DNA of 64,000 nt from an uncultured Gemmatimonadales bacterium (GCA_963779755.1 CAVZZO010000003.1:256001-320000), one strand, 5' to 3'. Positions 1,175-20,402 are shown, counted from the first letter of the stretch. The notes: generated by a model from the letters alone, not told the origin. Numbers and translations are program-made.

Positions 1175-1185
1175 ATAGACTTACA

Positions 1186-1215
1186 ACCTTAACCGCCTGT
1201 CCGCTGCCCGGTCAA
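1186..1215 (-). promoter_or_regulatory. Putative sigma70 promoter for the small membrane gene and tRNA-Val
   Basis: Minus strand TTGACC-N18-TAAGGT, 11 nt before ATG 1174. Confidence 0.55.
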
Positions 1216-1293
1216 GCGCGATTGTCGTACGGGACAGGAGTTGTCCTCTTTCTACGGCACCCAACCGGCCTCATAGCGGCCCCGACCTCCCGT

Positions 1294-2256
1294 TCAACAT
1301 CGGGAAGCGCAGACGGGCGAGCGGTGCGCATGGTCACACCTGCTCCGGTGGGGGGGATCTTCGGGCGGCAGCACCCAGCCTTCGTTGAGCGCCAGGCGCC
1401 GGGGCCGGTCGGTCCAGCGTCGATACCACCAGAGGGCCACCACCAGCAGCGCCATGACGGTCCAGAACCCGCCCGCTGCCAGCCAGATCAGCAGGTTGTA
1501 GCGGTGCTTCAGGGTCTGGAGCCACTCCTCCTGGTATTGCCCCAGGGTACGCCCGGTGGCCGCGCGCACTGCGGCGGAAAAGTCCTCCCCCTGCTCCAGC
1601 CTCCGCATGAGCGGCGCGAGATCGTCGCCCGGAATGCGCCGGGCCAGTTCCATCACGGCCGACATGGCCAGCGCATACGCGCCGTCGGCCATCGAAGCCG
1701 TGCCCCGGAGCGCGGCGTTCAGACGATCGAAATCGGGAATGCTGCGCCGCAGCACCATCAGGCTCAGCCGCAGGGCGTCAAGCCGGTCCCACTCGCCGGC
1801 GGCCATGGCGGCGTAGCCTTCATCGAACCAGAGCGGGACGCGGGTCTGCACCGCGTGGTGCAGAGCGAGATGCGCCAGCTCGTGCCGCAGGGTGCGCCCC
1901 AGATCCGCCTGATCCGACCGGAGGACAATCGTTCGGCTGCCGGGAAAGGCGAGACCGGCACCCCAGGACGGGGCCCGGCCCCGCCCCACCTGCTCGAAGG
2001 TGGCGGCATCGGGGACCAGCACCAGCCGCAGCGGCGGTGGCCGGCGCGTGCCGAGGCCGGGCCAGCGGGCCGGCTGGCCGGCCCGTTCGGCCAGCGCCAG
2101 GGCGAGCGAGAGCTGGGCCGGCCGGGCGACGACCGTCACCGGGCCGACCTGGACGATCCTGGGTTCGTCTCCGGCAGGACGCTGCGCCGGCGCGCCCGGC
2201 GTCAGCCGTGCGGGCGCGGCCAGCGCAAGCAGAATCAGGCAGGCACGGACGGTCGT
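1294..2256 (-). CDS. Peptidase MA-like zinc metalloprotease with signal peptide and C-terminal TM helix
   Basis: TLRHELAH (HExxH) and PLWFDEGYA motifs. The frame stays open upstream of the track start (2139) through a signal-like segment beginning at ACG 2256. Confidence 0.8.
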   Translation of the reverse strand, partial: TTVRACLILLALAAPARLTPGAPAQRPAGDEPRIVQVGPVTVVARPAQLSLALALAERAGQPARWPGLGTRRPPPLRLVLVPDAATFEQVGRGRAPSWGAGLAFPGSRTIVLRSDQADLGRTLRHELAHLALHHAVQTRVPLWFDEGYAAMAAGEWDRLDALRLSLMVLRRSIPDFDRLNAALRGTASMADGAYALAMSAVMELARRIPGDDLAPLMRRLEQGEDFSAAVRAATGRTLGQYQEEWLQTLKHRYNLLIWLAAGGFWTVMALLVVALWWYRRWTDRPRRLALNEGWVLPPEDPPHRSRCDHAHRSPVCASRC

Positions 2257-3110
2257 GGCGGTGCTCCTCCGGTCGCCACCAGGTCCAGCAGTTCCTTGCA
2301 GCGTTTGCCCCAGGGGTTGAAACGGTTCGCCTTGGCGCCGTCGGTCCAGGCCGCGGTGGCCTGGTCCCGTTCACCGGCAAACCAGAGCGCGCGACCCAGT
2401 TCGTACCAGGCCTCGGTGAGATTGGGGCCCAGTTCAAGCGTCTTGCGGAAGAAGACCTGGGCGTCTTCGAACATCTCGCGCTCCAGGTAGACCAGCCCGA
2501 GGTAGAAATGGGCGTAGAGCGTGGCCTTGCGGTCGTTATCCAGCCGGATGGCCTTGGAGAGATGCTCGATCGCTTCGCCGAAGATGCGCTTCTTGAGGCA
2601 GATATAGCCCACATTGATCCGGGCCAGCGAATTGGCCGGCTCGCGCATCAATACCTTGCTGAAGGTCGCGAGCGCGTCGTCGTAATCCTCGTGGAGCATC
2701 TGGGCCCAGCCCAGCAGCGACTGCGCCTGGATATCGCCGGGCGCCAGCGTGAGTGCCCGGGTGAGGGCCTGGATGGCGCCGTCATAGTCGCCCAGCGAAA
2801 TGAGGCTCCAGCCCTTCTCGATGAAGGTCGAGGCACCCAGATGGTCGGCGTGCATCATGGGCCGTGCGCCGGTGAACTTCGGCGCCTGGGCGTTTTCGGC
2901 TTCCCCCGCGGCCTGCTTGTACCGTTCCACCAGGGTGCGAATATCCTCCTTGAGGCGCGTCAGTTCGCCCAGCGTACCGTCAACTTCCTTGAACAACCCG
3001 ATGATATCGCGTTTGATCCCTTCCCGGCTCGCCTGGCTGGAGACCTGCTCCAGGGCCGACGCGATCGCGTCGTACCGCCGGCGGAGCGCGGACGCGTAGC
3101 TGTCGTTCAC
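2235..3110 (-). CDS. N-terminal coiled-coil plus TPR protein
   Basis: Helical N-terminus followed by about 5 TPR repeats (e.g. AHFYLGLVYLEREMFEDAQVFFRKTLELGP); 4-nt overlap with upstream cheW. Confidence 0.85.
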   Translation of the reverse strand: MNDSYASALRRRYDAIASALEQVSSQASREGIKRDIIGLFKEVDGTLGELTRLKEDIRTLVERYKQAAGEAENAQAPKFTGARPMMHADHLGASTFIEKGWSLISLGDYDGAIQALTRALTLAPGDIQAQSLLGWAQMLHEDYDDALATFSKVLMREPANSLARINVGYICLKKRIFGEAIEHLSKAIRLDNDRKATLYAHFYLGLVYLEREMFEDAQVFFRKTLELGPNLTEAWYELGRALWFAGERDQATAAWTDGAKANRFNPWGKRCKELLDLVATGGAPPRPSVPA

Positions 3111-3604
3111 TGGCCGGCCTCCCCGGGCGCGGCCCCCGCCACCGGCTCCAGGCCGTCGGCCAGCGCGAGGCGCTCCTCCGAGTTCAGCAGCCGGTTGGCA
3201 TGCAGCAACAACACGGTGCGCTTCCCCCGCGGCAGGATCCCCGCGATGTATTCGGCCGCGAGCCCGCGCACCATGGGCGGCGGCGCGCTGATGGCCGTGC
3301 TGTCCACCCGGGCGACTTCGACCACCCGGTCCACCGTCACCGCCACCCGATGGTCGTCCAGCTGGAGCACTACCAGCCGGGTCTCGTCGGTGTGGGGGGC
3401 CGGCATCTCCAGCCGCCGCCGGAGGTCCACCAGCGGCACCACACCCTCACCATAAGGAATGACCCCCTCGAGGAAGGCGGGAGCCCGGGGCAGCCGGGTC
3501 GGCTCCTGCCAGCGGAGGATCCGCTCCACCTGAAAGATGTCGACCCCGAACTCCTGCGGCCCTACCTCGAAGATCACGATCTGCACCTGGTCATCGGTCA
3601 GCAT
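3107..3604 (-). CDS. cheW: Chemotaxis coupling protein CheW
   Basis: QIVIFEVGPQEFGVDIFQVERI, PRAPAFLEGVI, VPLVDLRRRL, VTVDRVVEV. Confidence 0.92.
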   Translation of the reverse strand: MLTDDQVQIVIFEVGPQEFGVDIFQVERILRWQEPTRLPRAPAFLEGVIPYGEGVVPLVDLRRRLEMPAPHTDETRLVVLQLDDHRVAVTVDRVVEVARVDSTAISAPPPMVRGLAAEYIAGILPRGKRTVLLLHANRLLNSEERLALADGLEPVAGAAPGEAGQ

Positions 3605-4031
3605 GCGGGACCTCCATTGCTGTCAGGCGCGTTGCCAGCGCCGCGATATCCAGAATCGGGATCCAGGCGTCGTCCCGGCGGGTCACCGCCACCGCCCAGG
3701 GCAGCGTTTCGCCGGCCGGGACGGGCAGCAGCTCACCCTGCACCACCGCCTCGGCCTCATCGACATCCAGCAGCAGCAGGGCACTGCCCAGCCGCAGCAG
3801 GATGCCCATCGTGTCCGCCCGGGCCGGCGGCTCCGGATCCTGCAGCAGCTGCCGCAGGTCGACGACCGGCACCAGGTGACCGCGCACCGGCGCCAGGCCG
3901 CGGCATGCCGCCGCCGCGGCCGGCACGGGGTGAATGCCGGCAATGTCCTCTACGGCCACCACATGCTCCAGCGGCAGCCCCACCCGGCGCCTCCCCAGAC
4001 GCACCAGCAGGAATTCCAGCGCTCCGGTCAT
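3591..4031 (-). CDS. cheW: CheW-like protein (divergent)
   Basis: [40 protein letters not shown]. Confidence 0.85.
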
Positions 4032-5098
4032 GAATGATCCAGACGCTCGAGCAACTGCATGACCCGGGCCGCGATCTCGCCCAGCGGGAGAACCTGGTCG
4101 GCGCCTCCGGCCTGCCGCGCTGCGTTGGGCATGCCGTAGACCGTAGCCGTGGATCGGTCCTGCGCGATCCCGAAGCCGCCTGCGTTATGGATGGCCCGCA
4201 GGCCGGCCGCGCCGTCCCGGCCCAGGCCGGTCAGCACCACCCCGACCGCGCGCCGTCCAAACTGCTCTGCCACCGATTGGAACAGCGGGTCGGCGGCGGG
4301 CCGCACGCCCCAGATCGACGGGCCCTGCTCCAGCCGCAGCACGGGGCCATCCGGCCCGGCCGCAACCCGCAGGTGGTAGTCGCCCGGAGCCACGAAGGCG
4401 CTGTCGGCCAGGAGCGGCATACCGTCCTCCGCCTCGACCACCCGCAGGGCGCTCTGCCCCGCCAGGCGCTCGGCCAGGCCGCGGGTGAACGCGGCCGGCA
4501 TATGCTGCACGATAACCACGGCCGCTCCCCGGCCCAGGCTCAGGCAGGGCACCACCTCCGCCAGCGCGCGAGGGCCGCCGGTGGAGGCGGCGATCGCGAC
4601 ACAGGCGCTGGCCAGATCGTGACCGGCGCTCTTCCGGGGCGGTGCCTTGCGGGGCCGGGCCAGCACCGGCAGGCGCCCGATGTCCGCCACCAGGGCCGCA
4701 TCCAGCGCCGCCACCAGGGCCGGCCCCAGGCGCTCCAGTCCATCCCGGCCGGCGCGGGGGTTCTTGTCCACGATTTCCACCGCGCCGAGTTCCAGCGCAC
4801 GGATGGCCGCCTCGCTGCCGGTGCCGGCGTGGGCGCTGAAGACCACGATCGGGCGCGGGACCTCGGACATGATGTAGCCGATCGCCTCCAGGCCGTCGAC
4901 CTGGGGCATTTCCAGGTCCATGACCACGATGTCGGGCTGGTACTGGTGCACCTTGCGCAGTCCGTCGAGGCCGTTGCGGGCCGTGGCCACCACCCGAAAC
5001 CTGCCGGTACGGGCGAGCAGCTCGGTCAGGACCTGGCGCACCAGGGCGCTGTCGTCCACGACCAGCACCGAGGTGTGCTCAGAGGATTTGTTCACCAC
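4028..5098 (-). CDS. cheB: Chemotaxis response regulator / methylesterase CheB
   Basis: Receiver domain (VVDDS, MDLEMP) plus methylesterase motifs [20 protein letters not shown]. Confidence 0.96.
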
Positions 5099-5567
5099 GC
5101 GCCGCCGTCCGCACGACCACCTGTCCGTTGGCCACCCGGAACCAGACGGAGCGGCCGCAGTCGCCGCCGACCAGCTCCCGGATGAGCGGGATGCCGTGCC
5201 GGTGCAGTACCTCGCGGGCCGCCACCAGGTTGCGTTCGCCCATCTGGATGGTGCCGGGGGTGGAGAGATTGGTGAACAGCGACGCCCCGCCCACCAGCCG
5301 GGCGGTCACCCGGCGCGGGTTGGCGCCCGCGGCACCCATGGCCTCGAGCAGCGCCGGAACGGCGGTGTGGGGCACCCGTCCCGGGCGATCCGACCGGCGG
5401 TTGAGCGACAGACTCGGCAACATGACGTGCGCCAGCCCGCCCACCCGGGTGGCCGGATCGTGCAGGAGGATGGCGACACAGGAGCCCAGCCCCAGGGTCA
5501 CCAGCACCGTCCCCTCGGAGCCGACGGCCAGCTCGGCCACCCCGACGATCGTTTCGCAGTCGCTCAC
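5079..5567 (-). CDS. cheD: Chemoreceptor glutamine deamidase CheD
   Basis: [37 protein letters not shown] start overlaps the cheR stop (GTGA). Confidence 0.95.
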
Positions 5568-6388
5568 CGGAGCCGCCGGTAAATGCGTTCCCGGGTGTCC
5601 ACCAGCTCCAGGTGCTCCCTCACCTCTCCCAGCACCGTCTCCACCTTGCCCAGCACCAGATATCCTCCCGGCTGCAACGACCGGAGGAACAGACCGAAGA
5701 GACGGTCCTGCATCGGCCGGTCGAAATAGATCAGAACATTGCGGCAGATGATCATGGCATAGTCGTGGTGCGGCGGCTCCTCCCGGGTGAGATCCAGCCG
5801 CCGGATGCTCACCCGGCGCCGCAGGGCCGGCAACACTTCCCGCCCCCTGTCGCGTTCGCCGGTGAAGGCCGCCAGGAGCTCCGGCGGCGTCTCGCTGAAG
5901 GCATCCTCGGGATACCAGCCGCTCCGGGCGCGATCGAGCGAGACCCGGTCGATGTCGGTGGCATCGATGGCCAGCCGGTCCAGCCACTCGGGATGCCCCG
6001 CCTCCCGGGCGGTCCGCTCCGCCAGCATGGTAAGCGAATAGGGTTCTTCTCCCGAGGCGCACCCGGCGCTCCAGATCCGCAGCGGTGTCCAGGGCCGCTG
6101 CCACAGTGCCGGCAACACTTCGGCCTCCAGCCGCTGCCACAGCTCCGGATTGCGGAAGAAGCGCGTCACGTTGATGGTCAGGGCGTCGGCCAGGCGCTGG
6201 TACTCCCCCGGCTCCGCTTCGAGGATGCGCAGGTATTCCTCGTACGAGGCGGCGTTGGTCGCCCGCATGCGCACCGCAATGCGCCGCCTCAGGCAGCGCG
6301 GCTTGTAGGCATCGGCCGCCAGGCCCGCGCCCTCGGAGATCTTCCGCGCCAGCCGCAGGAACTCCTCCTCCTCGCCTGTCGCGCTCAC
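5564..6388 (-). CDS. cheR: Chemotaxis methyltransferase CheR
   Basis: LTINVTRFFRN, RIWSAGCASGEEPYS, ATDID, ICRNVLIYFD; GTG start at 6388 overlaps the upstream stop. Confidence 0.96.
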   Translation of the reverse strand: MSATGEEEEFLRLARKISEGAGLAADAYKPRCLRRRIAVRMRATNAASYEEYLRILEAEPGEYQRLADALTINVTRFFRNPELWQRLEAEVLPALWQRPWTPLRIWSAGCASGEEPYSLTMLAERTAREAGHPEWLDRLAIDATDIDRVSLDRARSGWYPEDAFSETPPELLAAFTGERDRGREVLPALRRRVSIRRLDLTREEPPHHDYAMIICRNVLIYFDRPMQDRLFGLFLRSLQPGGYLVLGKVETVLGEVREHLELVDTRERIYRRLR

Positions 6389-8001
6389 GCCCCAACCTTG
6401 AGCGTCTCGAGATTGCTGCGAGCCAGTTGGTGCGCCGGGTTGAGTGCCGTGGCGCGGCGCCAGCACTCCCGCGCGCGATCCTGGTCGCGCCGCCGGTAGG
6501 CGATATTGCCCAGCTTGAAATAGAGATCGTCGCCCAGTTCCGGATCGAGCTTGGCGGCGCGCTCGTACGACTCCAGCGCTTCGTCGTAGCGTCCCGCACG
6601 GTAGAGCAGATCGCCCATGTTCTTGGAGGCCTGGGGCAGCGTCGGCTCTTCCTCGAAGGCGGCCCGCGCCATGACCTCGGCCGCCGCCGTATCGCCGGTG
6701 AACTCGAGCAGGGCCGCAAGATTGTTCCGCAACACTGCATTGGCGGGCCACGCGTCGACGCCCGCCTGCGCGTGCTCCACCGCCGCCTGCAGCTCGCCCG
6801 CGCCGGCCGCCGCCAGGCCCGCCGCCCAGAACCAGAGCGGCGGCGGCGGCCGCTCGCCCAGCAGCTCGCGGGCGCGCGCCAGCCGGCCGGTCGCCACCTC
6901 ATGCTCCTCCCGTTTCAGCGCGGCAATGGCCCAACTCAGCATGTAGCGCGCGTCGTCCCGGGCACGAGTCACCGCCTCGGCGTAGGCGGCCTCGGCCTCT
7001 TCGATCCGTCCCAGCTGTTCCAGCGCCACCCCCAGGTTATGCAGCGTAGGCGCGCTGGCGCCGCCCGCCTCGGAGGCCTGGCGAAACAGCTGCAGCCCTT
7101 CCTCCCAGCGCGCCTGCCGCAGCGCGATGAGCCCCAGATGGAACACGGCGCCGGGCTTGCCCGGCCGCAACTCGTGCACCCGGCGAAACTCGCGCTCGGC
7201 TTCGTCCAGCATGCCGGTCTTGTAGAAGGCGATCCCCAGGTTCTGGTGCTCCTCCACCCGGCCCTCCGCCGCGCGCGGCGGCGCGGCGACGCTGGTGCCG
7301 ACGCGGTGCACGAACCCCGCCGTGATCAGCCCGTACAGCGCCTTCCCCGCTTCGAACTCCACCAGTCCGGAATCGTCCATCAGTTGCTGCACGTCGCGAC
7401 TGCCGTCCAGCAGCGGGAGCAGCCGTTCCTGTTCCGGCGAGAGCGCCACGGAGGCGCCGTCCAGGTGTTCCTGATCGGCCGCGAAGATCATATCGAAGCT
7501 GGGGATCTTCTTCTCGATGAGGCTCCATTCATCCACCCGCCGGGCCCCTTCCAGCAGCAGCGACTCGGGGTTGATCTGAACCAGGAACTCCTCCGTCTCC
7601 GGCCGAACCCCCGCCTCGAAGTTGAAGGTGCCCGACGACCAGGTGAAGAGATAGTAGACGGCCTCTTCGATCTGGGTCCGGATATGCCGGCGCAGCTCAT
7701 CCTGATTCAGGGCTCCCATGTCGACCAGAATCCGGCCCAGCCGGCGGTGCCGGTCGGCGTGCTGCTCCTCGATGGCACGCTCCAGCTGCTCGGCCGAGAT
7801 CCGGCCCGCCTTCACCAGCATGTCGCCCAGACGGTCGCGCCGGTTGACGATCGACGCGTAGCAGATCCGCCCCTGGTCGAAGTAGATGTACCCGAAGTTG
7901 TGGCGGTCGGCCACGGCCAGGCACCCGGTCTTGCGGCCCAGCGACAGCAGTTGCAGCACGTCCGGCAGACTGGCTTCGCGGAGACTTCCCTTGATCGCCA
8001 T
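6385..8001 (-). CDS. DUF4388 / MshEN-like / TPR protein
   Basis: Starts [28 protein letters not shown] (DUF4388-type); tandem RLGxxLVxxG motifs; LLEGARRVDEW; C-terminal TPRs. TGATG overlap with the upstream gene. Confidence 0.88.
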   Translation of the reverse strand: MAIKGSLREASLPDVLQLLSLGRKTGCLAVADRHNFGYIYFDQGRICYASIVNRRDRLGDMLVKAGRISAEQLERAIEEQHADRHRRLGRILVDMGALNQDELRRHIRTQIEEAVYYLFTWSSGTFNFEAGVRPETEEFLVQINPESLLLEGARRVDEWSLIEKKIPSFDMIFAADQEHLDGASVALSPEQERLLPLLDGSRDVQQLMDDSGLVEFEAGKALYGLITAGFVHRVGTSVAAPPRAAEGRVEEHQNLGIAFYKTGMLDEAEREFRRVHELRPGKPGAVFHLGLIALRQARWEEGLQLFRQASEAGGASAPTLHNLGVALEQLGRIEEAEAAYAEAVTRARDDARYMLSWAIAALKREEHEVATGRLARARELLGERPPPPLWFWAAGLAAAGAGELQAAVEHAQAGVDAWPANAVLRNNLAALLEFTGDTAAAEVMARAAFEEEPTLPQASKNMGDLLYRAGRYDEALESYERAAKLDPELGDDLYFKLGNIAYRRRDQDRARECWRRATALNPAHQLARSNLETLKVGA

Positions 8002-9953
8002 CAGCGGGCCTCCTCGATCAGGCGGTCCGCCGGCTCGGGCCAGTCCCAGACCAGCTTCTCCCGGCTGCGCAGGCCGCTCGCGACCGACACCACCACCCCG
8101 CTGAACCGCGGTCCGCTGCGCCGCGGGGTCCGTCCGGGAGCGCCCTCGAGGACCTCGCGCGCCAGCGCCGCTGTCGGCGCCTCCTGCCGCGCTTCCGCCG
8201 CCTGGAGCACCCGCTGCACCACGCCCTGGAGCGTTCGCACCGAATCCACCGTGCGGCCTGCCAGGTACTCGGCCAACCCCGCATCGCAGCTGCCCAGGTG
8301 GTCGCGCAGCAGCCGTTCCAGCACGGCCTGGCGCACCTCCCGCTCGGGCGGCGGCAGATGCACCACCAGCCCGCCCTCCAGCCGGCTCACCAGACGCGGC
8401 TCCAGGCCGTCGACCTCGGTGAGCGGCGAGACGGAGGTGAAGACCATCTGCCGGCCCGCCTCGGCGAGCTCGTTGAAGAGCCAGAACAGCTCTTCCTGGG
8501 TGCGATCCTTGCCTGCCAGCAGGTGGATGTCGTCCAGCAGCAGCGCGGTGATGCGGCGGTAGCGGGTGCGCCACCAGCCGATCCGGTCCCGGTCGATGGC
8601 GCCGATCAGCTCATCCACGAACTCGGCGGCGGTGAGACACGCCACCACCGTGTTCTCCCCGGCGCCGAGCGCGTTGCCGATGCCGTGCAGCAGATGGGAC
8701 TTGCCGGTGCCGCTGGGCCCCACGATGACCAGCGGGTTGTAGCGGCTTCCCGGCTGCTCCGCCACGGCCTGGGCGGCCCGGGCGGCGATCCGGTTGCCCG
8801 GCCCCTCGGCAAAATCCGCCAGTTGCCAGTGCGGCGACGGCCGCGGCGGGGGCGCCACGCCCTCCCGCGCGCTGGCCACCAGCGCCTCCGCTTCCTCCAG
8901 GCGATCGGGATCGCGGAAGACGGCATGGCCGCCCAGCGCCGTGTCAAGGTCGGTGGCTTCCGCCTCCAGGACACGCAGTCGCTCGACATCGTCGGCGTAG
9001 CGGGCCAGCAGCCCGTCCGGGTCGGGCGGCATGTCCTCTTCCAGCAGTGCGTCCAGCCGCGCCGTGCGGTAGCCTTCGCCCTCCCAGCGGAGCACCGCCT
9101 CGGCCACCCGTCCGCGCCACGCCTCCACCTGCTGAGCCACGGTGCTGGTGATTTCCGACAGGAAACTGGAGAATTCGTCGCTCCGCTCCGCCGGCGCGTC
9201 CTCGTCCTCGGGGGCAGCCGGGGGCGCCACCGCCGTCGGCCGGCCCAGCACGCCGGGCACTTCCTCCGACCGTAGGGGCTCGGTGCGGACGGCCTGGTAG
9301 GCGATCAGCCGGTTCAGCGCGCCGATCAACTCGCGCACGTTGGTGTACTGCGGAGCCGCCACCGCTTCCAGCACGCCGGCCGCGAAGGTCACGTTGCGCT
9401 CCTCCGCGTGGCGGCGGACGATGGCAACGCGCGTTTCGTAGTCGGGCGCGGTGATGTCGATGACCAGCCCGCCGGCGAAGCGCTGAACCAGCCGTTCGTC
9501 CAGTGCCTCGATGTCCTCCGGACCGCGATCGCTGGTGAGAACGATCTGATGCCCGGCGGTCTGCATGATGTTCACCAGCCGGAGCAGCTCGGCCTGCATC
9601 TCCCGCCGCCGGGCCAGAAACTGGACGTCGTCCAGCAGCAGCAACCCGACCTCGCCGTACCGGCGCCGGTAGGCTTCACCCTGCCCCGCCGCCAGCGCGG
9701 CGTGATAGGCCTCCACCAAGTCGTCCAGCGTCTGGTATTCGCAACTGAGCCCCGGATTGATCGCCTGTGCCGCCTGGGCGATGGCCATCAGCAGGTGGGT
9801 CTTGCCCAGGCCCGGGCCGCTGTAGAGGAACAGCGGGTTGTAGACGTTCCCCGGCGACTCGGCCACTGCCTTGGCCGCGGTGACCGCCAGCCGGTTGGCG
9901 GCGCCCACCACGAACGTCTCGAAGCGCAGCCGCGCGTTGATGCCGCCGGTCAT
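8001..9953 (-). CDS. Protein with two tandem DnaA-type AAA+ ATPase domains and no DNA-binding domain IV
   Basis: Copy 1: [48 protein letters not shown]. Copy 2: [55 protein letters not shown]. Confidence 0.9.
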
Positions 9954-10552
9954 GCCAGCGCCTCCCGCGAAGCCAGCCGGCGCAGGACCACCTCGGAAAT
10001 GCCCTTGAGGGTCTCGAACACCCCGCCCCCGTGCAGGGCGTCGGCTCCAAAGCTCGGCACCCCGCGGAAATTCAGGACGTCGTCGAGGTCGGGAGGGGTG
10101 AGGATCAGGTCCCGGGGAAGATCCTGTTTGTTGTACTGGATCACCATGGGGAACTGGCGTACGTCCATCCCCTGCCGCAGCAGGTTGGCCTGGAGGTTCT
10201 GCAGGCTTTCCAGGTTCTCCTCCAGCCGCCGGCCCTGGCTGTCGGCCACGAAGACCACGCCGTCGGCGCCCTGCAGCACCAGCTGCCGGGTAGAGTTGTA
10301 GTACACCTGCCCCGGGACGGTGTAGAGCTGGAAGCGGGTAGTGAAGCCGGAGATGACCCCCAGGTCCAGCGGCAGGAAATCGAAGAACAGGGTCCGGTCG
10401 GTATGGGTGGCCAGCGAGACCATCCGCCCGCGGCGGCCCTCCGGCACCCGGCCGAAGACGTACTGCAGGTTGGTCGTCTTGCCGGACCGTCCGGGCCCGT
10501 AGTAGACGATCTTGCAGGTAATCTCGCGGGTCGTGAAGTTGACGAGCGACAT
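9950..10552 (-). CDS. mglA: MglA-family small GTPase
   Basis: [56 protein letters not shown]. Confidence 0.96.
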
Positions 10553-11017
10553 CTAGCGTCCGAAGAGCGTGCGAAGGCTCGTGTTGAGGTCGCGTTCGAA
10601 ATCGGCTGGCAGCACTTCGCTGGGCCGGGATTCCGGCGGCGGCGCTGCCCGGGCCAGCTGTGCCACCAAACGGTTGAAGAACAGTTGCACGATGCCCAGG
10701 GAAGTCTCCGGACCGAAGACTACGAAGCCGATCCAGCTCCCGCGCGGGGTGTCGAACTGGGCCAGAAAATGTCCCTGCCGGGTCCCCTGGTGCGCCATCG
10801 CGCTGAAGGGCGGCCAGGCCAGCATCCGTGCCAGTTCCTGGGCGCTGGCCACGATGCCGGCGCCCAGTGCCGCCGCCGACATGACGTCCAGCGCGCGGGT
10901 GAACCCGTGCTGCGCAATCACCTGGCCCGACCCGGTCATGATCAGGGTCAGCCGGGCCGAGGATTCGGCCAGGAAATCGTTCAACGGTTCCACCACCCAG
11001 GATTCTACCGCCCGCAT
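10553..11017 (-). CDS. mglB: Roadblock/LC7 protein, MglB-like
   Basis: LIMTGSGQVIAQHG, AAALGAGIVASAQELARML, VVFGPETSLGIVQL, C-terminal FERDLNTSLRTLF helix; directly upstream of mglA. Start is 11017 (TGATG overlap) or 11029. Confidence 0.85.
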   Translation of the reverse strand: MRAVESWVVEPLNDFLAESSARLTLIMTGSGQVIAQHGFTRALDVMSAAALGAGIVASAQELARMLAWPPFSAMAHQGTRQGHFLAQFDTPRGSWIGFVVFGPETSLGIVQLFFNRLVAQLARAAPPPESRPSEVLPADFERDLNTSLRTLFGR

Positions 11018-11367
11018 CAACTCACCCATTCAGCCAGGCGGCCGAGATCCAGCCGCGCCCGTCCGACGTTGACTCCACGATCGGCAATAAGCACCGTAAC
11101 CAGTTCCGTCCCGGCCGGCGCCACCAGCAAGAGTCCGCCGCTCGCCTGCACCAGCACGAACTGGGGCGCCCCCGCCCCGGCCCCTTCCGCCGCGGCGTCC
11201 AGCCGGCGCACCAGGCTGCTCGCCAGGGCCGCCAGGGCGGCGCCATCGACGCCTTCCATCAGCGATTCCGCGACCACCAGGCCGTCGGCCCGCGACGCCA
11301 GCAACGCCCCGCGCGCCCCGCGGATCCGGATCAGCGGCTCGAGCGCGGCCTGGTAGTCCGGCGTCAT
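11017..11367 (-). CDS. Roadblock/LC7 domain protein
   Basis: IRGARGALLASRADGLVVAE, AALAALASSL, VNVGRARLDL; ATGA overlap with the upstream gene. Confidence 0.88.
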   Translation of the reverse strand: MTPDYQAALEPLIRIRGARGALLASRADGLVVAESLMEGVDGAALAALASSLVRRLDAAAEGAGAGAPQFVLVQASGGLLLVAPAGTELVTVLIADRGVNVGRARLDLGRLAEWVS

Positions 11368-12203
11368 GCACTCCCCTCCAGCCAGCGCCGCGCCGCTTCG
11401 GCCGCCCGGGTGGCCAGCAGCGCCAGCCGCCCCATCGGCATTCCGGCCTCGCGACGCACCAGCAGGAGCGTCTCGCCGGTGGGCGGCGCCAGAAAGAGAT
11501 TCGCCTCCGGCGCCTCGACGGCGATGCCCTGCCATTCGCCCAGGCCGAGCAGGCGCACGGTCCGCTCCACCTCGCGGGAGACGCCCGCCAGTTCCGCCGC
11601 GACCTGATCGTCGCGCTCCGCGATGCCGTCGCCCAGTGTCCCCTCCAGCCGCAGGCCACCGCTGTCCAGCAGGAGGAAGCCGGGGCCGCCCAGATCGAGC
11701 GGGACGGCCGCGATGCCAGGCACCGCGGATGCCGGCGGCGCTTCAGGCGCCGGCTGGTCCGGCGCCCGCAGCGGCGCGGCCTCTCCCTCGCTCAACCCGG
11801 CAGCCAGCTGTTCCCGTACCCGGCTCAGCGCGGTCTGCAGCGCCTCGTCCGCCGGCAGGCTGCGCGCGGCCACTTCGAGGTGGTGTTGCGCGCTGGGGAG
11901 ATCCCCGGCCATAAAATAGAGGTAGCCCACGCCTTTGTGCGCCCCGGGATGCACCGGGTCGAGCCGCAGGGTCATATCCCATTCGTCGAAGGCGCTCTCC
12001 AGCTCGTGCTGATCCACCAGGATCCGGGCGTAGAGATCGTGCGCATCGGGAAGATTGGGATAGCGGGTGAGGCCCTGCCGGGCCACCTTGGCGGCGGCGT
12101 CCAGGCGGCGCGCCCGGCGCAGCGCCTCTCCCAGTTCCAGAAAAATCAGGCTCGACGGGTCGGCGGCCAGCTGCGCGGTGAGCCCGCGGATGTCGTCACT
12201 CAC
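11364..12203 (-). CDS. TPR plus C-terminal Roadblock/LC7 fusion protein
   Basis: DPSSLIFLELGEALRR TPR region, Pro/Ala linker, then LLLDSGGLRLEG...VAAELAGVSREVERTVRLLGLGEW...MPMGRLALL. Confidence 0.82.
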   Translation of the reverse strand: MSDDIRGLTAQLAADPSSLIFLELGEALRRARRLDAAAKVARQGLTRYPNLPDAHDLYARILVDQHELESAFDEWDMTLRLDPVHPGAHKGVGYLYFMAGDLPSAQHHLEVAARSLPADEALQTALSRVREQLAAGLSEGEAAPLRAPDQPAPEAPPASAVPGIAAVPLDLGGPGFLLLDSGGLRLEGTLGDGIAERDDQVAAELAGVSREVERTVRLLGLGEWQGIAVEAPEANLFLAPPTGETLLLVRREAGMPMGRLALLATRAAEAARRWLEGSA

Positions 12204-13338
12204 GGCCGCCTCGCAGGGCTCGCTCCAGGGTGTAGGCTGCTTCGCGGGCGGAACGGACCTCGAGCGAGTGCGCCGCTTCCTCCGGCGACAGATCGGGCAT
12301 TGCGCTCCAGCGGTCCCAGCTCTCGACCGCCTCCAGAAAAAGGCCGCGGGCGACCAGGCTATAGCCCAGCAGCCGCAGCGCCGGAACGCACTGGAGATCG
12401 AGCTGCAGCGCCCGCTGCAACGCCGCCGTGGCCTCCTGGTGATGTCCCTCGGCCAGGTGGGCGCGGCCCACCGCGGCATGCGCCAGCGGCTCGTCCGGAT
12501 GCCGCGCCACGGCCTCTTCCGCCAGGCGGCGCGCCGTCTCGGGCTGCCCCCGCAGCAGTTCGTCCTCCGCCCGGGCGATCAGCATGGCCAGTTCCCGGCC
12601 GCCCGGCGGCTCGGCCGGCCGGGACACCGGATCCTCCAGCATGAGGATCCCGGTGCTGGCGAGCCCGAAGAGCGTCTTGGCCACCTCGAACTCGGAACGG
12701 CGTAGATGCTGGGAGAGATCCCGCACGTCCTGGCGGCCGTCCACCATGGCCAGCACTTCCCACTCGAACGGAATGAGGTCGAGACGGGAGTCGTTCCCCT
12801 GCGCCAGCCGGGGAATGATGCCGAGGTGGGGAATACGCGTCTCGATGCGGGACCATTCGTCGATCCGCCGGGCCGCTTCCATCAGCAGCGCCTCGGTGGG
12901 GATTCGGATGTCCGCTTCCGTCGGCAGCTCGCCGGGATCGCCCTCCTCGAAGGAGAAGTACCCCTCCGACCAGCTGAGCAGCTCGAAGACGACCTCCTCC
13001 ACCTGGCCCCGCACCCGGCGCTCCAGCTGCCGCCGGGAGATCGCCCCGATGGAGACCAGGATTTCGCCCAGCTTGCGGCCGTCGCCGTTTTCCTGCATGG
13101 CACGGGCGCGAGTCAGGTCTTCTTCCGAGAGCTTGCCGGCCCGGAGCAGCAGCCCGCCCAGCGGGTGCGGGTTGCTGCGGATCTCCGCGCCCACCACACC
13201 TCCCCGCTCGAAGTACACCGTGCCCGCGTTGAGCCGGATCTCCGAGCGCACCTTGAGCGCTCCCGTCTTCCGGCTCAGGTCCAGCAGCTGGAAGACGTCG
13301 TGGATGCTGAGCTCGCGCAGCGGGCCTTCGATCGCCAT
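12196..13338 (-). CDS. DUF4388 / degenerate MshEN-like / TPR protein
   Basis: MAIEGPLRELSIHDVFQLLDLSRKTG, LLMEAARRIDEW, C-terminal TPRs; paralogue of 6385-8001. Confidence 0.88.
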   Translation of the reverse strand: MAIEGPLRELSIHDVFQLLDLSRKTGALKVRSEIRLNAGTVYFERGGVVGAEIRSNPHPLGGLLLRAGKLSEEDLTRARAMQENGDGRKLGEILVSIGAISRRQLERRVRGQVEEVVFELLSWSEGYFSFEEGDPGELPTEADIRIPTEALLMEAARRIDEWSRIETRIPHLGIIPRLAQGNDSRLDLIPFEWEVLAMVDGRQDVRDLSQHLRRSEFEVAKTLFGLASTGILMLEDPVSRPAEPPGGRELAMLIARAEDELLRGQPETARRLAEEAVARHPDEPLAHAAVGRAHLAEGHHQEATAALQRALQLDLQCVPALRLLGYSLVARGLFLEAVESWDRWSAMPDLSPEEAAHSLEVRSAREAAYTLERALRGGRE

Positions 13339-16013
13339 CAGGCCCTCCGCCGGGAGAAGATATGCTGCAGCTCGCGCGCGGAGCGTGTCTCGTTGCGGGC
13401 CAGCTGCGCGAAGGACGAGGCCGGCGCCTGCTGAACCACCCGTTCCCAGAGCTGAACCGCCTCCTGGAAGCGGCGCAGCCGCGCCAGCGTCATGCCGACG
13501 AAATAGAGGGCGCCGGGATTGTCGGGATCGAACCGCAGCACCCGGCGGAACGCCTCCAGCGCCTCGACCACGCGCTGGTCGTCCATCAGGGCGCGGCCCA
13601 GAAGCGTCAGCGCGTCAAGGTCGAGCGGTTCGGTGGTGAGCAGCGCCACCAGCACCTCCACCGCCGCCGCCGGCGACTCGGTGCGGCGCAACAGATCGGC
13701 CAGCCCGAGCACCGCCTCCACGTAGCTCGGCAAGAGGTCCACTGCGTGCTCGTAGCACTGCCGGGCCGCGCTCCAGCGCTCCCGCCGTTCCTCCAACTGG
13801 GCCAGCTCGAACCAGACCTGCGCCAGGGTTCCGTCGAGTTGCAGGGCGCCGTGGTACGCTTCGGCGGCCTCCTCCAGCTGGCCCAGCCGCTCGTTGACGC
13901 GGGCCTGCAGCTGCAGCAGGTCGGGACGGCCGGGTGCGCGCGCCTGCGCCTCCTTCACCAGATCCAGGGCACCGACCGGATTCCCCCCGTGCAGCCGGGT
14001 CTGGGCCGCGGCCACCAGCACGTCGACGTCCTCCGGGCGCCGCTCCACCAGCTCCTCCGCCAGGGTCCCCGCTTCTCCCGCCCGGTCCAGCGCGAGCAGG
14101 CTGCGGACCTCCCCCAGCAGGGCTTCTTCATCGCCCTGCAGCATGGCGCCGGCCTGGCGGTACCGCTCCAGGGCTTCGCCGTGCAGGCCGCGCCGGGCGT
14201 AGATATGGCCCTGCAGCACCAGCGCCCGCCCCTCCTGGGCGCCGCGGCCCCGGGCCCGGTCCAGTTCGCCCACCGCCCGCTCCAGCAGCCCCTTCTGGAT
14301 GTACTCCCGGGCCAGCGCCAGCGGATCCTCGACCCCGGCCGGCTCGGGAGCGGGCGCAGCGCTCAACTCCTTGAAGAACTGGTCCAGCAGCCGCTGGTCG
14401 AAGACGAAGTCCTCGCCCATCTGCTCGGTGCGGACATCGGCGGAGATCTCCGGCACCACGGCGATGGTGGGGTCTTCGTACTGCAGGTCGATGGCCAGGG
14501 AAAACTTCTGCGGGACATAGTAGGGCTCCAGCTCCAGGGCCTGCTTGGTCTCCCGCAGCGCTCCGTCGTAGTCTCCCAGCTGGCTCAGGGTGAAGCTCAG
14601 GTTGTAGTGGGCCGAGGCATTGCGCGGATCGGCCTCCACCGCGCGCACGAAGGCGTTTCGCGCATCGCTGAAGCGTTTGATCTCGGTCAGTACCAGCCCC
14701 ACGCCGTTCCAGGCGACGGCATTGCGCGGGGCCTCGGCCAGCACCTGGCGGTAGGCCTCCAGCGCCAGCTGAAAGCGACGGCGCTGGAACAGGAGCAGGC
14801 CCAGGTTGAGCCGGCCGGCGGTCAGGTCGCGGCGGCAGCGGAGCGCCTGGTGGAAGGATTCCACCGCGTCCTCGTTCTCCAGGCCGTGGCGGCTCTGCAG
14901 CACGCCCAGATTGTTCCAGGCCAGGGCATAGTTGCGGTCCAGCCGGATTGCCTGCCGGTAAGCTGCCTCGGCCTCTTCCCGCCGTCCGGCCTGGTGCAGG
15001 CAGACGCCCAGCTCGTTCTGCAGCTTGGGCGAATCGTCGTATTCCTGGACCAGCTCCTGGTAGAGATCGAGGGCGCCGCCCAGGTCGCGCCGCAGCAGGT
15101 GCACCTCCGCCATGGCCTGCAGGGTGAGCCGGCGATCCTCGCCCTGTTCCAGCGCCATACGGTACTCCCGCAGGGCCTCGAGGTAGTAGCCCTTCTGCCG
15201 GAAGGCGAGCCCGAGGTTGAAATGCGCCAGCGTGGCGCCCTCGGTGACGCTGGGCCGGGCCGGGGCCTCGGGGGCGGCGCCGTTTCCCGTGATCTGCTGC
15301 AGCGACAGGTTGGTATGCGCACGGGCGAGCGTGGGGTTCAGCGTGATGGCGCGCTTGGTGGCGGCCCGCGCCGCCTCGTGATAACCCAGGTCGCCGTAGA
15401 GGAACGCCAGCAGGTAGTGCGCATCGGCGTTGTCCGGGTTGAGCGCGACCGCTTCCTGCAGCACCGCGCGCGCCTGGTCCGGCAGGCCGCGGTTGTACAG
15501 CGCCTCGCCGTAGTAGAAGAGCGCGACGCTGCTCTCCGGATCGAGTTCGCTGGCGCGGCGGAAGTGGTCGCAGGCCTCCTCGGGGCGGTTGGAAGCCTTC
15601 TCGGCCAGGCCCAGCTGAATCAGGGCCGGCACGTCCTTCGGATACTGCTCGACCAGCGTGTGGAACTCCGCGATGGCCTCATCGCCCTGCCCCATGGAGG
15701 CGTAGGTGCGGGCCAGCTCCCAGCGCGCGTCCCGTTGAGAGGGCTGGCGCCGCAGCACCTCCCGCAGTTCCGAGACCCGGCGGTCGTAGTATCCGGAGCT
15801 GCGATAGGCGATCTCCAGGTTGGCCTGTGCCACCTGCATCCGCGAGTCGAGCTCGAGCGCGCGCCCGAACTCGGCGATGGCTTCCGCGATCAGCCCTTTC
15901 TGGTAGTAGAGGACGCCGAGATTGTTATGGGCCCCGGCGTCGGAAGGATCGATCCGCCGCGCGAACGTCCGCAGGACTCCGAGGTCACGCTCCGAGAGCA
16001 CGGGCGCGGGCAT
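13338..16013 (-). CDS. Large cytoplasmic TPR protein (891 aa)
   Basis: Many canonical TPRs (AHNNLGVLYYQKG, AHFNLGLAFRQKG, AWNNLGVL, AHYNLSFTL); no signal peptide. Confidence 0.92.
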   Translation of the reverse strand: MPAPVLSERDLGVLRTFARRIDPSDAGAHNNLGVLYYQKGLIAEAIAEFGRALELDSRMQVAQANLEIAYRSSGYYDRRVSELREVLRRQPSQRDARWELARTYASMGQGDEAIAEFHTLVEQYPKDVPALIQLGLAEKASNRPEEACDHFRRASELDPESSVALFYYGEALYNRGLPDQARAVLQEAVALNPDNADAHYLLAFLYGDLGYHEAARAATKRAITLNPTLARAHTNLSLQQITGNGAAPEAPARPSVTEGATLAHFNLGLAFRQKGYYLEALREYRMALEQGEDRRLTLQAMAEVHLLRRDLGGALDLYQELVQEYDDSPKLQNELGVCLHQAGRREEAEAAYRQAIRLDRNYALAWNNLGVLQSRHGLENEDAVESFHQALRCRRDLTAGRLNLGLLLFQRRRFQLALEAYRQVLAEAPRNAVAWNGVGLVLTEIKRFSDARNAFVRAVEADPRNASAHYNLSFTLSQLGDYDGALRETKQALELEPYYVPQKFSLAIDLQYEDPTIAVVPEISADVRTEQMGEDFVFDQRLLDQFFKELSAAPAPEPAGVEDPLALAREYIQKGLLERAVGELDRARGRGAQEGRALVLQGHIYARRGLHGEALERYRQAGAMLQGDEEALLGEVRSLLALDRAGEAGTLAEELVERRPEDVDVLVAAAQTRLHGGNPVGALDLVKEAQARAPGRPDLLQLQARVNERLGQLEEAAEAYHGALQLDGTLAQVWFELAQLEERRERWSAARQCYEHAVDLLPSYVEAVLGLADLLRRTESPAAAVEVLVALLTTEPLDLDALTLLGRALMDDQRVVEALEAFRRVLRFDPDNPGALYFVGMTLARLRRFQEAVQLWERVVQQAPASSFAQLARNETRSARELQHIFSRRRA

Positions 16014-16018
16014 GATCC

Positions 16019-16639
16019 CTACGAGAGGCGAATGGCGTCGAAGACGGCCCGGAGGGAGGCGAGGTCAGGCATGAGCAGGAAATGGCCCCGGAGCCCGCGG
16101 TTTTCTTCGGAGAAGACGAACTCGGTCTCCAGACAGAAGACGAAATCCCGTTCGTACCCGAAGTTCAGATAGGTGCTGGTGAGCACGGCGCCGGCCAGGT
16201 CCACCACCAGCCCCGGAACCGAGGGAAGCAGCATCATCCCCATGAAGTCGCTCAGGGCGTTGAGATAGGCGCTGCTCAGGATGTTCCCCGCTTCCTTGAG
16301 CCCCGACTGTTCCATCTCGCCGAATTCGGTGGTGGTGCCCATCTCGCGGCGCAGCAGGATGTCGCACAGCTCTTCGGCGGAATCGCGGGGAAAGACGATC
16401 ATGGTCCGGCCCGTCAGGTCGCCCATCATGTGCATCAGCACCGCGGCGACGATGTCGTCGGGACTGCCCAGCAGCCGGCAGACCTCCTCCAGCCGGGTGA
16501 TGTTCACCTCGGGCACCGAGATCATGATCTTGCGGCCGGTCATCTGGGACAGGGCGGTGGCGGCGTGCCCTGCCCCGATGTTGGCGACCTCGCGCAAGGC
16601 ATCGAGTTGCAGCTCCTGCAGGTTCCGGATGTCGTCCAC
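16019..16639 (-). CDS. cheC: Chemotaxis phosphatase CheC
   Basis: Two DxxxExxN-type motifs: DALREVANIGAGHAATALS and SGLKEAGNILSSAYLNALS. Confidence 0.95.
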   Translation of the reverse strand: MDDIRNLQELQLDALREVANIGAGHAATALSQMTGRKIMISVPEVNITRLEEVCRLLGSPDDIVAAVLMHMMGDLTGRTMIVFPRDSAEELCDILLRREMGTTTEFGEMEQSGLKEAGNILSSAYLNALSDFMGMMLLPSVPGLVVDLAGAVLTSTYLNFGYERDFVFCLETEFVFSEENRGLRGHFLLMPDLASLRAVFDAIRLS

Positions 16640-16647
16640 AGGGCCTC

Positions 16648-18525: not shown

Positions 18526-18529
18526 CGGC

Positions 18530-18892
18530 TCAGCCGAGCACGCGCTGCACCGCCTCCAGCACCCGGGACGGCTGGAAGGGCTTCACCACGAAGTCCTTCG
18601 CCCCCGCCTGGATGGCTTCCACCACCAGCGCCTGCTGGCCCATGGCGCTGCACATCAGGATCTTGGCGTCCGGATCGTCGCGGCAGATCTCCCGCACCGC
18701 GTCGATGCCCCCCATATCCGGCATGACGATATCCATGGTGACCAGATCGGGCTTGAGCTGGCGGTACTTGTCCACCGCCTGCCGTCCGGTCTCGGCTTCT
18801 CCCACGACTTCGAAGCCCGCCTGCGCGAGAATGTCGCTGATCATCGTGCGCATGAAGATCGCGTCATCGCACACCAGCACCGTGTTGGCCAC
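18530..18892 (-). CDS. cheY: Chemotaxis response regulator CheY (Bacillus/Thermotoga type)
   Basis: VLVCDDAIFMR, PDLVTMDIVMP, CSAMGQQ, GAKDFVVKPFQPSRV. Confidence 0.95.
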   Translation of the reverse strand: MANTVLVCDDAIFMRTMISDILAQAGFEVVGEAETGRQAVDKYRQLKPDLVTMDIVMPDMGGIDAVREICRDDPDAKILMCSAMGQQALVVEAIQAGAKDFVVKPFQPSRVLEAVQRVLG

Positions 18893-18934
18893 GAAAGCCC
18901 TCCCTGCAAGTTGCGCCGTTTGGCCGGATGTCCG

Positions 18935-19372
18935 TCAGGCCGAGTACACCGGCCCCAGGACCGTTTCGGTATCCAGCACCACGAACACGCGATCGTCCCA
19001 CCGCCCCACCGCCTGCACCAGCCGCGGGTCTACACCCGGCAGGGTGTCCCGCTCGTCCAGTGCGGACGCGGGCAGGTGCAGGAGATCGTGCACCAGATCC
19101 ACGATGAGCCCGAGGAGACGTCCCCCCACGGCCAGCAGCAGGATGGACGGCTCCACCGCCGGCGGCCCGTCCCGGCCCAGCATCTGCCGCCCGTCGGCGA
19201 CGGTGATGAGCCGCCCGCGGACGTTCACCAGCCCGAGCACACCGGCCACCGCGCCAGGAATCCTGGCGGGGGGGTGGTAGGGAACGATCTCCTGCACGAT
19301 GCCGGTGGGGGCCGCGCAGAGGAGATCGCCTACCTGGAAGACCAGTAAAGACACCGTCTCGGCGTCAGCCAT
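18935..19372 (-). CDS. cheW: Chemotaxis coupling protein CheW
   Basis: LLVFQVG, PGAVAGVLGLVNVRGRLITVAD, LGLIVD; ATG 19372 overlaps the rluD stop by 8 nt. Confidence 0.9.
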   Translation of the reverse strand: MADAETVSLLVFQVGDLLCAAPTGIVQEIVPYHPPARIPGAVAGVLGLVNVRGRLITVADGRQMLGRDGPPAVEPSILLLAVGGRLLGLIVDLVHDLLHLPASALDERDTLPGVDPRLVQAVGRWDDRVFVVLDTETVLGPVYSA

Positions 19373-20372: not shown

Positions 20373-20402
20373 AACCGGAGGCCGCGGCGCGGCCGCCCGC
20401 GC

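Follow-up and report, generated by a model that had tools for sequence, protein, structure and literature searches.

Within a window of 64,000 nucleotides (the whole stretch of DNA that was analysed) from an uncultured Gemmatimonadales bacterium lies a gene whose product joins in one chain two copies of the AAA+ ATPase module (domain III) of the replication initiator DnaA, and which stands between the genes of the polarity GTPase MglA and of a PATAN-TPR protein. The gene occupies positions 8001-9953 of the minus strand as a single open frame of 650 amino acids, and its product is termed P0001. We favour, at about an even chance, the reading that P0001 serves the MglA/MglB/PATAN/TPR polarity module of Gemmatimonadota as an ATP-gated adaptor, i.e., a DnaA-derived tandem AAA+ protein that left replication initiation. 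It is favoured because the domain tests exclude membership of the DnaA and Hda families and because the context ties the gene to the MglA module, not to an origin. Nearly all that is known of the DnaA ATPase module concerns replication, that is DnaA, Hda and, more distantly, the helicase loaders, and the MglA system is thought to run on a GTP switch and a phosphorelay. What is met here is a DnaA module, about 40% identical to its source, which was duplicated, stripped of the domains that bind DNA boxes and partners, and given a constant place, throughout a phylum, at the heart of the operon of a Ras-like polarity GTPase.

The composition of P0001 is seen most directly in profile searches. The Pfam model Bac_DnaA (PF00308) matched two stretches of the protein (E 4.3e-89, 297 bits), and neither DnaA_N nor Bac_DnaA_C matched it at E <= 0.01; the N-terminus consists of 4 residues, after which domain III begins directly. 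When E. coli DnaA was searched over the 64-kb window by tblastn, only the two domain III copies were found (DnaA residues 132-345 and 140-363), with domains I and IV unmatched at E <= 0.01, and E. coli DnaN, used as a query at the same threshold, found no match in the window. An earlier, sequence-only reading of this DNA had described two domain III copies without domains I and IV and without dnaN context, and had anticipated that a profile scan would return two Bac_DnaA hits and no terminal domains; that is what the searches returned, and no domain IV came to light in Pfam, in hhalign, in the PDB fold search or in tblastn.

The motifs listed by that reading were likewise all located in P0001. 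Walker A is GPGLGKT at 46-52 in copy 1 and GPSGTGKS at 412-419 in copy 2, and the paired Asp of Walker B are at 108-109 and 474-475. The Arg-finger region reads RLVQRF (154-159) and RLVSRL (520-525), sensor II reads NVREL (205-209) and SVRTL (571-575), and sensor I is TSDR at 140-143 in copy 1 vs. the altered TSVSP at 506-510 in copy 2; the REKLVWDWP tail lies at 631-639. Copy 1 in the AlphaFold2 model superposes on domain III of B. subtilis DnaA (8bv3_A) in Foldseek with a TM-score of 0.94 and a root mean square deviation (rmsd) of 1.6 A, and the sequence match to the same structure has E 1.9e-48. The model places two helices after strand 2 and ahead of the strand of Walker B, at 76-88 and 92-100 in copy 1 and at 442-454 and 458-466 in copy 2, and this insertion region aligns without gaps to DnaA structures. 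In solved DnaA structures the helices at this place are the initiator-specific motif, the mark of the initiator clade of AAA+ proteins (DnaA, Orc/Cdc6, DnaC and IstB).

Both copies descend from DnaA rather than from Hda, as far as can be judged from the comparisons made. Copy 1 is 42% identical to E. coli DnaA (E 2e-54) and copy 2 is 38% identical (E 5e-49), and the two copies share 36% identity with each other (E 1e-31). Against E. coli Hda copy 2 reaches 24% identity (E 7e-11), copy 1 gives no match at 1e-3, and the match of copy 2 to Hda structures is weak (E 1.7e-8). The phylogeny of each copy against DnaA and Hda, which the sequence-only reading had proposed, was built as a quick maximum-likelihood tree of 61 rows, i.e., 25 rows of each copy, selected over the breadth of the family, 9 canonical DnaA, E. 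coli DnaA and, as the outgroup and single Hda sequence, E. coli Hda. In this quick tree all 25 copies 1 form one group (SH-like approximate likelihood ratio test, SH-aLRT, 94), with one long-branch copy 2 inside it, and 24 of the 25 copies 2 form another (SH-aLRT 91); both groups lie among canonical DnaA, Hda is a long outgroup branch, and the subclades of the two halves match. Since the copies form separate clades with matching subclades, the duplication is old and both halves have been kept and inherited together. Neither copy is Hda-like by descent in these comparisons, and an Hda-type identity of copy 2 is ruled out by 24% vs. 38% identity and by its position in the tree.

The Hda profiles agree with this placement. 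TIGR03420 (Hda) scored 166 on P0001, below its cut-off of 194.8, and the other Hda/HdaA models scored 57-64 vs. cut-offs of 268-300. The N-terminal motif by which such proteins bind the clamp has a consensus of the QL[SD]LF type. Its sole lookalike in P0001, QLADF at 377-381, coincides in the alignment with the region of the first domain III strand and was rejected as a clamp motif, since the Gln is found in 6 of 72 family members; the absence of a conserved Hda-type clamp motif, as claimed earlier, is upheld.

The two copies differ in the residues that they have kept. These were followed at two depths, in an order-level set of 20 sequences (that of the window and of 19 intact loci, with 8 truncated or broken loci left out) and in a wider-family alignment with E. 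coli DnaA that held 71 copies 1, 67 copies 2 and 30 canonical DnaA (rows shorter than 190 residues left out). Among the E. coli residues, V211, R245 and R227 serve in the binding of single-stranded DNA (ssDNA) or in the opening of the origin. In copy 1 the ATP site is complete, with K51, D108, D109, D142, R154, R158 and R207 each present in 20/20 at order level, and in the wider family the P-loop Lys is found in 71/71, the two Walker B Asp in 71 and 69, the sensor-I Asp in 56 and the sensor-II Arg in 66 of the 71. At the positions of V211, R245 and R227, copy 1 has His, Asn or Gln, then Glu (20/20), and Ala, Thr or Gly, respectively.

In copy 2, K418, D474, D475, R520, R524 and R573 are each kept in 20/20 at order level, and the sensor-I Asp is found in 0/20 (Ala in 12, Val in 3, Thr in 2, others in the rest). 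The ssDNA-type positions are those of DnaA: the V211 position (I450) is Ile in 19/20 and Leu in 1/20, the K243 position (residue 482) is Lys or Arg in 19/20, and the R245 and R227 positions (R484 and R466) are Arg in 20/20 each. The pore positions of copy 2 in the wider family carry Ile in 35, Arg in 45 and Arg in 48 of the 67, and the canonical DnaA used for comparison have Ile or Val at the V211 position in 30/30 and R227 in 30/30. The Arg finger is retained in 52/71 copies 1 and 54/67 copies 2 (20/20 each at order level), and the E. coli L290 position and the box VII arginines are present in both copies. Taken together, the residues point to a division of labour, in which copy 1 has a complete ATP site and copy 2, while devoid of the sensor-I Asp, has DnaA-type pore residues.

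Outside the two AAA+ modules P0001 carries parts that are its own. The sequence-only reading had described a Pro/acidic linker followed by a helical spacer of roughly 120 residues; the linker (236-259) is indeed rich in Ala, Pro, Glu and Asp and is of low confidence in the model (predicted local distance difference test, pLDDT, <50 at 239-260), and the spacer is present, yet its length is about 105 residues (260-365) and not 120. This middle domain is a helical bundle, confident both in the whole-protein model and in a separate AlphaFold2 model (pLDDT 88.2), and its motifs DEFxxFL, WxGEGYRT and FRDPD and the closing PPPxP are kept across the loci. Its comparison with a profile of 83 canonical DnaA gave an hhalign probability of 0.09; the PDB fold search gave nothing at E <= 0.001 (best E 3.6), the sole Pfam matches at E <= 10 were ABC_tran_CTD (0.04) and TEX33 (0.33), each well short of its cut-off, and the Atlas contained no usable match. 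These four null results rule out that the middle domain is a degenerate domain IV or domain I.

The chain ends in a peptide, EKxVWxWPxxxDRLIEE, which is the most conserved part of P0001 outside the P-loop. Among 67 family members, picked from 151 rows by a length of 570-740 and the presence of at least one P-loop, W638 is kept in 61, E632 and P639 in 55 each, and E647 in 53; at order level E632, K633, W636, W638, P639, R644 and E647 are each found in 20/20. The WxWP-type motif occurs a single time in the window. In the model the tail docks on its own protein with low confidence (pLDDT 56-63), and in one relative (P0192) an Asp/Glu/Ser-rich low-complexity stretch of about 300 residues precedes the tail, which is still C-terminal. 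Some relatives (P0212, P0218, P0236 and P0242) have extra residues after the WDWP motif, and therefore a free carboxylate is probably not required; a carboxylate clamp of the TPR "EEVD-type" is accordingly less likely, as WDWP is not terminal in several relatives. The tail may best be read as a peptide on a tether, by which a partner would be docked.

The second line of evidence for the adaptor reading is the genomic setting. The gene order of the cluster is cheW-cheY-cheA-cheC, a gene for an 891-residue TPR protein, PATAN-TPR, TPR-Roadblock, Roadblock, mglB, mglA, the tandem gene, a second PATAN-TPR, cheR-cheD-cheB-cheW-cheW and a last TPR gene. A scan of a genome collection gave 27 loci with the tandem gene, all from metagenome-assembled genomes (MAGs) of Gemmatimonadota at 52-73% identity, in which the neighbours of the window were compared by tblastn. 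The mglA gene lies directly upstream of the tandem gene in 26/27 loci, the exception being L005, which starts inside the gene and lacks an upstream flank; the PATAN-TPR gene lies directly downstream in 26/27, the exception being L023, which ends inside the gene; and mglB is found in 26/27. In the window the stop codon of mglA overlaps the start of the tandem gene in ATGA, and the stop of the tandem gene overlaps the start of the PATAN-TPR gene in TGATG, an arrangement by which the tandem gene is translationally coupled to both neighbours.

The chemosensory (Che) genes accompany this core in nearly all loci, with cheA in 19/20 loci that have sufficient upstream flank and cheR in 25/26 whose downstream flank is present. 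Both counts miss L025, which is the most divergent of the loci (52%). Its core of nine genes (L025:3910-14467), which begins with the large TPR gene and closes with the last one, stands at the same chromosomal site with no che genes on either side; therefore the core of Mgl, PATAN, TPR and tandem-ATPase genes is separable from the Che system.

The chromosomal address of the cluster is also constant. In the window one flank (19365-25813) holds divIVA, ileS, a DksA/TraR-type zinc-finger gene, lspA and rluD, and the other (1-2139) holds a peptidase-MA gene and then a TPR gene that runs off the window start; in the loci mraW comes next after the peptidase-MA and TPR genes, and L025 continues with ftsI and murE. 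With mraW in 19/27 loci and rluD in 18/27, the remaining loci running out of flank, the cluster stands at a fixed address beside division and cell-wall genes. Such a neighbourhood is compatible alike with an adaptor, with an action on DnaA filaments and with the handling of nucleic acid. Gemmatimonas aurantiaca is described as budding in division, and if so, a polarity module beside division genes would be of special interest.

Neighbourhoods of mglA and PATAN genes are on record from other phyla. In PMC4316618, a work on prokaryotic small GTPases, PATAN genes are reported sometimes near group 1 and group 5 mglA; a supplement table of that work has MglB>MglA>PATAN adjacent in Chloroflexi and MglA>PATAN in Aquificae, and for Gemmatimonas aurantiaca T-27 the GAU_1409 row of its supplement file 3 reads PATAN>MglA>-PATAN, a single unnamed gene standing between mglA and PATAN. 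If the unnamed gene is of the present family, this spacing would fit a lineage-specific insertion of the tandem gene into an old module. The term "DnaA" has 0 occurrences in the main text and three supplement files of PMC4316618.

The tandem architecture is not confined to the assembly studied, a possibility that had been raised as one that would overturn the sequence-only reading. Besides the 27 genome loci, a word-indexed search gave >120 full-length homologues of 643-694 residues at 60-91% identity, and an exhaustive HMMER scan of 50%-identity representatives gave full-length tandem members down to about 31-35% identity; the tandem gene is no assembly artefact. All the named carriers are Gemmatimonadota, save one MAG labelled Cloacimonetes in the most distant group (P0185), which also includes members labelled Gemmatimonadetes, and the nearest Atlas clusters of P0001 are mostly Gemmatimonadota as well. 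The homologues, where a source record names them, go as "DnaA/Hda family protein" (Gemmatimonadota/Gemmatimonadales). Variants of the architecture were also met: P0219 ends in a receiver domain after its tandem modules and is without the tail, and P0221 and P0223, giants of 1876 and 1990 residues, begin with an MshEN domain and have some 1400 residues between their two DnaA modules. In the loci from long-read MAGs L018-L021, L026 and L027 several of the cluster genes, including the tandem gene, align in pieces, which looks like frameshift errors and not like decay.

A way in which P0001 might work as an adaptor can be outlined. ATP at copy 1, which would be the nucleotide-sensing site, would be read through two Arg fingers and would set a head-to-tail contact, within one chain or between chains, from which probably an open, DnaA-like oligomer rather than a closed ring would arise. 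The ATP state would in turn control recruitment by the helical domain in the middle and by the WxWP peptide on its tether, the likely recruits being MglA and/or the PATAN-TPR protein, and the AAA+ switch and the MglA GTPase switch, under the Che pathway in most genomes, would together determine the site or the timing of a polar complex. The pore surface of copy 2 could have ssDNA or another extended polymer as its ligand. The sequence-only reading had left a choice between a covalent pseudo-dimer that caps or modulates DnaA filaments and a standalone ATP-switch scaffold; the covalent pair of domain III holds, and of the two roles it is the scaffold, tied to MglA/Che, that is favoured by the synteny, the coupling and a weak MglA fold.

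That fold was predicted for the tandem protein together with MglA, GTP and two ATP. It scored 0.34, vs. 0.00 for the best of 3 controls, which gives weak support; the runs shared at least 44% of contacts, the partner had a pLDDT of at least 77, and no interface was reported. The mark was reached in calibration by 116/157 solved complexes and 2/215 mismatched pairs, and passes with a score of 0.60 or less comprised 18 of the 157 solved complexes and both mismatched pairs, counts that are rough for the present fold, in which custom alignments were used and small molecules were included. If the invariant neighbourhood with its overlapping codons is taken as a prior, the predicted complex weakly supports a direct MglA contact, towards which it nudges the reading rather than showing one.

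Several observations weigh against the adaptor reading. According to the calibration of the folding tool, most passes with such a score are false where the guess was not likely beforehand. The AlphaFold2 model of P0001, built with 72 family sequences, has a mean pLDDT of 90.3 and a predicted template modelling score (pTM) of 0.55, by which the folds of the parts are confident but no prediction is obtained for their mutual placement, that of the two AAA+ modules included. The ssDNA-type residues of copy 2 would be superfluous in a pure protein adaptor. The ATP site of copy 2 is partly eroded in the wider family (P-loop Lys 59/67, second Walker B Asp 54/67, sensor-II Arg 48/67), and control by ATP through copy 2 would not be universal there. 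In the 17-kb cluster (2235-19417), which has cheA, cheY, cheC, cheD, cheR, cheB and three cheW, there is no gene for a methyl-accepting chemotaxis protein; therefore the Che input and the substrate of CheR, CheB and CheD are encoded elsewhere or are unconventional. Finally, the locus context comes entirely from Gemmatimonadota, mostly from relatives at the level of the order.

One may ask whether P0001, in spite of its setting, still acts on DnaA. The pseudo-dimer might join or cap the ATP-DnaA oligomer on the unwound origin through its Arg fingers and the ssDNA surface of copy 2, and thus couple initiation to the MglA/Che state, a role that we hold to be unlikely. It would agree with the 38-42% identity of both copies to DnaA domain III and their grouping with DnaA and not Hda, with the box VII Arg and L290 position in both copies, with the V211, K243, R245 and R227 positions kept in copy 2, and with the place of the cluster between divIVA-ileS-lspA-rluD on one side and mraW-ftsI-murE on the other. 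However, no other dnaA, no dnaN and no origin lie nearby in the window, the dnaA proper of the genome being located outside it, and the protein is devoid of domain IV and of domain I, the part of DnaA that recruits the helicase and regulators. Moreover, the overlapping codons tie the gene to mglA and the PATAN gene, with synteny in every locus, copy 1 has lost the ssDNA-contact positions, and self-assembly explains the retained residues equally well. In the more general form of the idea, a phylum of bacteria would have made a second nucleotide switch of its initiator and joined it to the MglA module beside the division genes, and the state of polarity or of chemosensing would bear directly on the origin or on DnaA via the ssDNA surface of copy 2 and the Arg fingers; this is doubtful to a somewhat greater degree.

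The retention of the DnaA-type pore residues (I450, R484 and R466) in copy 2 alone also suggests another role, independent of DnaA, in which copy 2 would bind ssDNA or RNA in an ATP-dependent manner at the cell pole and the MglA module would position it. Yet the cluster contains no nuclease, helicase, recombinase or DNA-uptake gene, a single module would not be expected to wrap ssDNA as the DnaA filament does, and a few conserved residues are weak evidence alone, so that such a role appears rather improbable.

A comparably low chance is given to the view that P0001 makes no direct physical contact with MglA and is conserved as its neighbour only, i.e., a general AAA+ factor co-transcribed for regulatory convenience. 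The weak support from the MglA fold and its lack of a reported interface would suit such a view. Against it stand the invariant position between mglA and PATAN-TPR with codon overlap on both sides, the persistence of this arrangement in L025 without che genes, and the direct adjacency of mglA and PATAN in other phyla according to PMC4316618, by which the gene would have been inserted into the heart of the module.

That P0001 truly initiates replication, or inactivates as Hda does, and is merely misplaced, is hardly credible, although it passes the DnaA equivalog model TIGR00362 with 447.5 bits vs. a cut-off of 343.9 and many of its JGI homologues (within P0003-P0116) are named "chromosomal replication initiator protein", since only profile positions 103-331 of 437 are matched and the cut-off is passed because two domain III copies sum up, domains I and IV are absent, and the Hda score, the Hda identity and the scarce clamp Gln all fall short as given above. 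The naming has a practical side, as automated dnaA counts in Gemmatimonadota may be wrong because TIGR00362 passes and because JGI names the homologues initiators, an annotation trap for those who rely on such counts.

Returning to the adaptor reading, the likeness of P0001 to known systems may be considered. With domain III of DnaA (B. subtilis 8BV3/8BTG, A. aeolicus 2HCB/3R8F) it shares the fold, the 38-42% identity found for E. coli DnaA, Walker A and B, the box VII Arg, sensor II and the two-helix insertion. Unlike DnaA, it has two copies per chain, no domains I, II and IV and no dnaN or origin context; it adds a helical domain without relatives and a WxWP tail, lies in an mglA operon, and has lost the ssDNA positions of copy 1 and the sensor-I Asp of copy 2. 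With Hda and HdaA it shares a DnaA-type AAA+ module without domains I and IV, and weak matches of copy 2, whereas it is tandem and not single, scores under the cut-offs, branches with DnaA and has no conserved clamp motif.

DnaC and IstB are single-module relatives from the same AAA+ clade. The IstB_IS21 model matches P0001 with E 2.4e-19, which is far weaker than Bac_DnaA (70 bits vs. 297), the NCBIfam IstB and DnaC models stay far under their cut-offs, and no transposase or helicase gene lies nearby; the candidate role of an IS21 helper was rejected for lack of a nearby transposase and for scores far under the cut-off. Type II tandem AAA+ proteins (p97/Cdc48, Rix7 and NSF) resemble P0001 in having two AAA+ modules per chain and a divided labour. 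They are, however, of the classic clade and form closed double-ring hexamers, whereas the modules of P0001 are of the initiator clade, which favours open spirals, judging from DnaA. A double-ring architecture was set aside, as Foldseek gave merely loose alignments (TM 0.27-0.30, rmsd >20 A). An anti-phage defence system was rejected too, PADLOC having given generic AAA/TPR matches alone (mad8 7.5e-9) and no passing stretch.

Partners of MglA in Myxococcus and Bdellovibrio are the TPR protein SgmX and the receiver proteins RomR, FrzS and AglZ. The tandem gene resembles the genes of such partners in lying in a genuine mglB-mglA-PATAN neighbourhood, of the kind listed in PMC4316618, with TPR proteins and Che; it differs in that none of the partners and neighbourhoods listed, in the main text and three supplement files of that work, is named as a DnaA-type ATPase. 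A literature search, largely without subscription journals, gave no paper on a DnaA-type ATPase in an MglA/PATAN/Che context or on tandem DnaA domain III proteins. The module is familiar; what is new is its architecture, together with the parts added to it and its setting in the cell. If P0001 is a true component of the MglA module, an ATP switch has been added to that module, and a rare case is found of an initiator-clade AAA+ protein outside DNA replication; if the protein still contacts DnaA or ssDNA, it links polarity signalling with replication.

The features of the gene and of its cluster are collected in Table 1. The operon limits rest on gene spacing only, because a promoter and terminator scan of 1000-20500 found sites no more frequent than in shuffles.

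Table 1. Parts of the tandem gene and genes of the surrounding cluster, in positions of the window.
Feature	Position	Strand	Basis or remark
Tandem DnaA-domain-III gene, P0001	8001..9953	-	stop codon 8001-8003; 650 aa
Copy 1, residues 5-235, DnaA domain III with lid	9249..9941	-	ATP site complete; ssDNA-contact positions replaced
Pro/Ala/acidic disordered linker, residues 236-259	9177..9248	-	pLDDT and composition
Helical domain, family-specific, residues 260-365	8859..9176	-	models and conservation across loci
Copy 2, residues 372-606, DnaA domain III with lid	8136..8840	-	sensor-I Asp replaced; pore residues kept
Disordered tether, residues 607-630	8064..8135	-	pLDDT <50 at 612-630
Conserved C-terminal peptide of 20 residues, residues 631-650, family hallmark	8004..8063	-	conservation
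mglA, Ras-like polarity GTPase	9950..10552	-	M. xanthus MglA structures, E 2e-71
mglB, Roadblock/LC7 GTPase-activating protein	10553..11029	-	matches solved MglB chains
Second Roadblock/LC7 protein, start codon uncertain	11017..11535	-	Robl_LC7, E 3.6e-9; conserved in loci
TPR and Roadblock-like protein, start approximate	11364..12200	-	Pfam; loci
Upstream PATAN (DUF4388)-TPR	12196..13338	-	DUF4388, E 6e-34; conserved in loci
891-aa TPR protein	13338..16013	-	Pfam; loci
Che genes, upstream block	16019..19417	-	
cheC	16019..16639	-	
cheA	16648..18525	-	
cheY-like receiver	18530..18892	-	
cheW	18935..19417	-	
Downstream PATAN (DUF4388)-TPR	6385..8001	-	DUF4388, E 9e-41
cheR	~5564..6400	-	
cheD	5079..5600	-	
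cheB	4028..5098	-	
cheW	3591..4031	-	
cheW	3107..3604	-	
TPR protein	2235..3110	-	

Two of the starts deserve a comment. The longest open reading frame (ORF) of cheR (5564-6751, minus strand) overlaps the preceding gene by hundreds of bases, and its CheR_N match begins at residue 129; the longest ORF of the TPR-Roadblock gene (11364-12479, minus strand) likewise overlaps the preceding gene by hundreds of bases. In both cases the start probably lies further downstream.

Elsewhere in the window, and unrelated to the tandem gene, an ORF of 1815 residues on the plus strand (47735-53182) combines pyruvate:ferredoxin-oxidoreductase, ferredoxin and thiamine pyrophosphate domains. The stretch at 53092-60643 on the same strand, likewise unrelated, carries Rnf-type genes (RnfC-like, an Rnf/Nqr membrane subunit and ApbE) and a CitMHS transporter.

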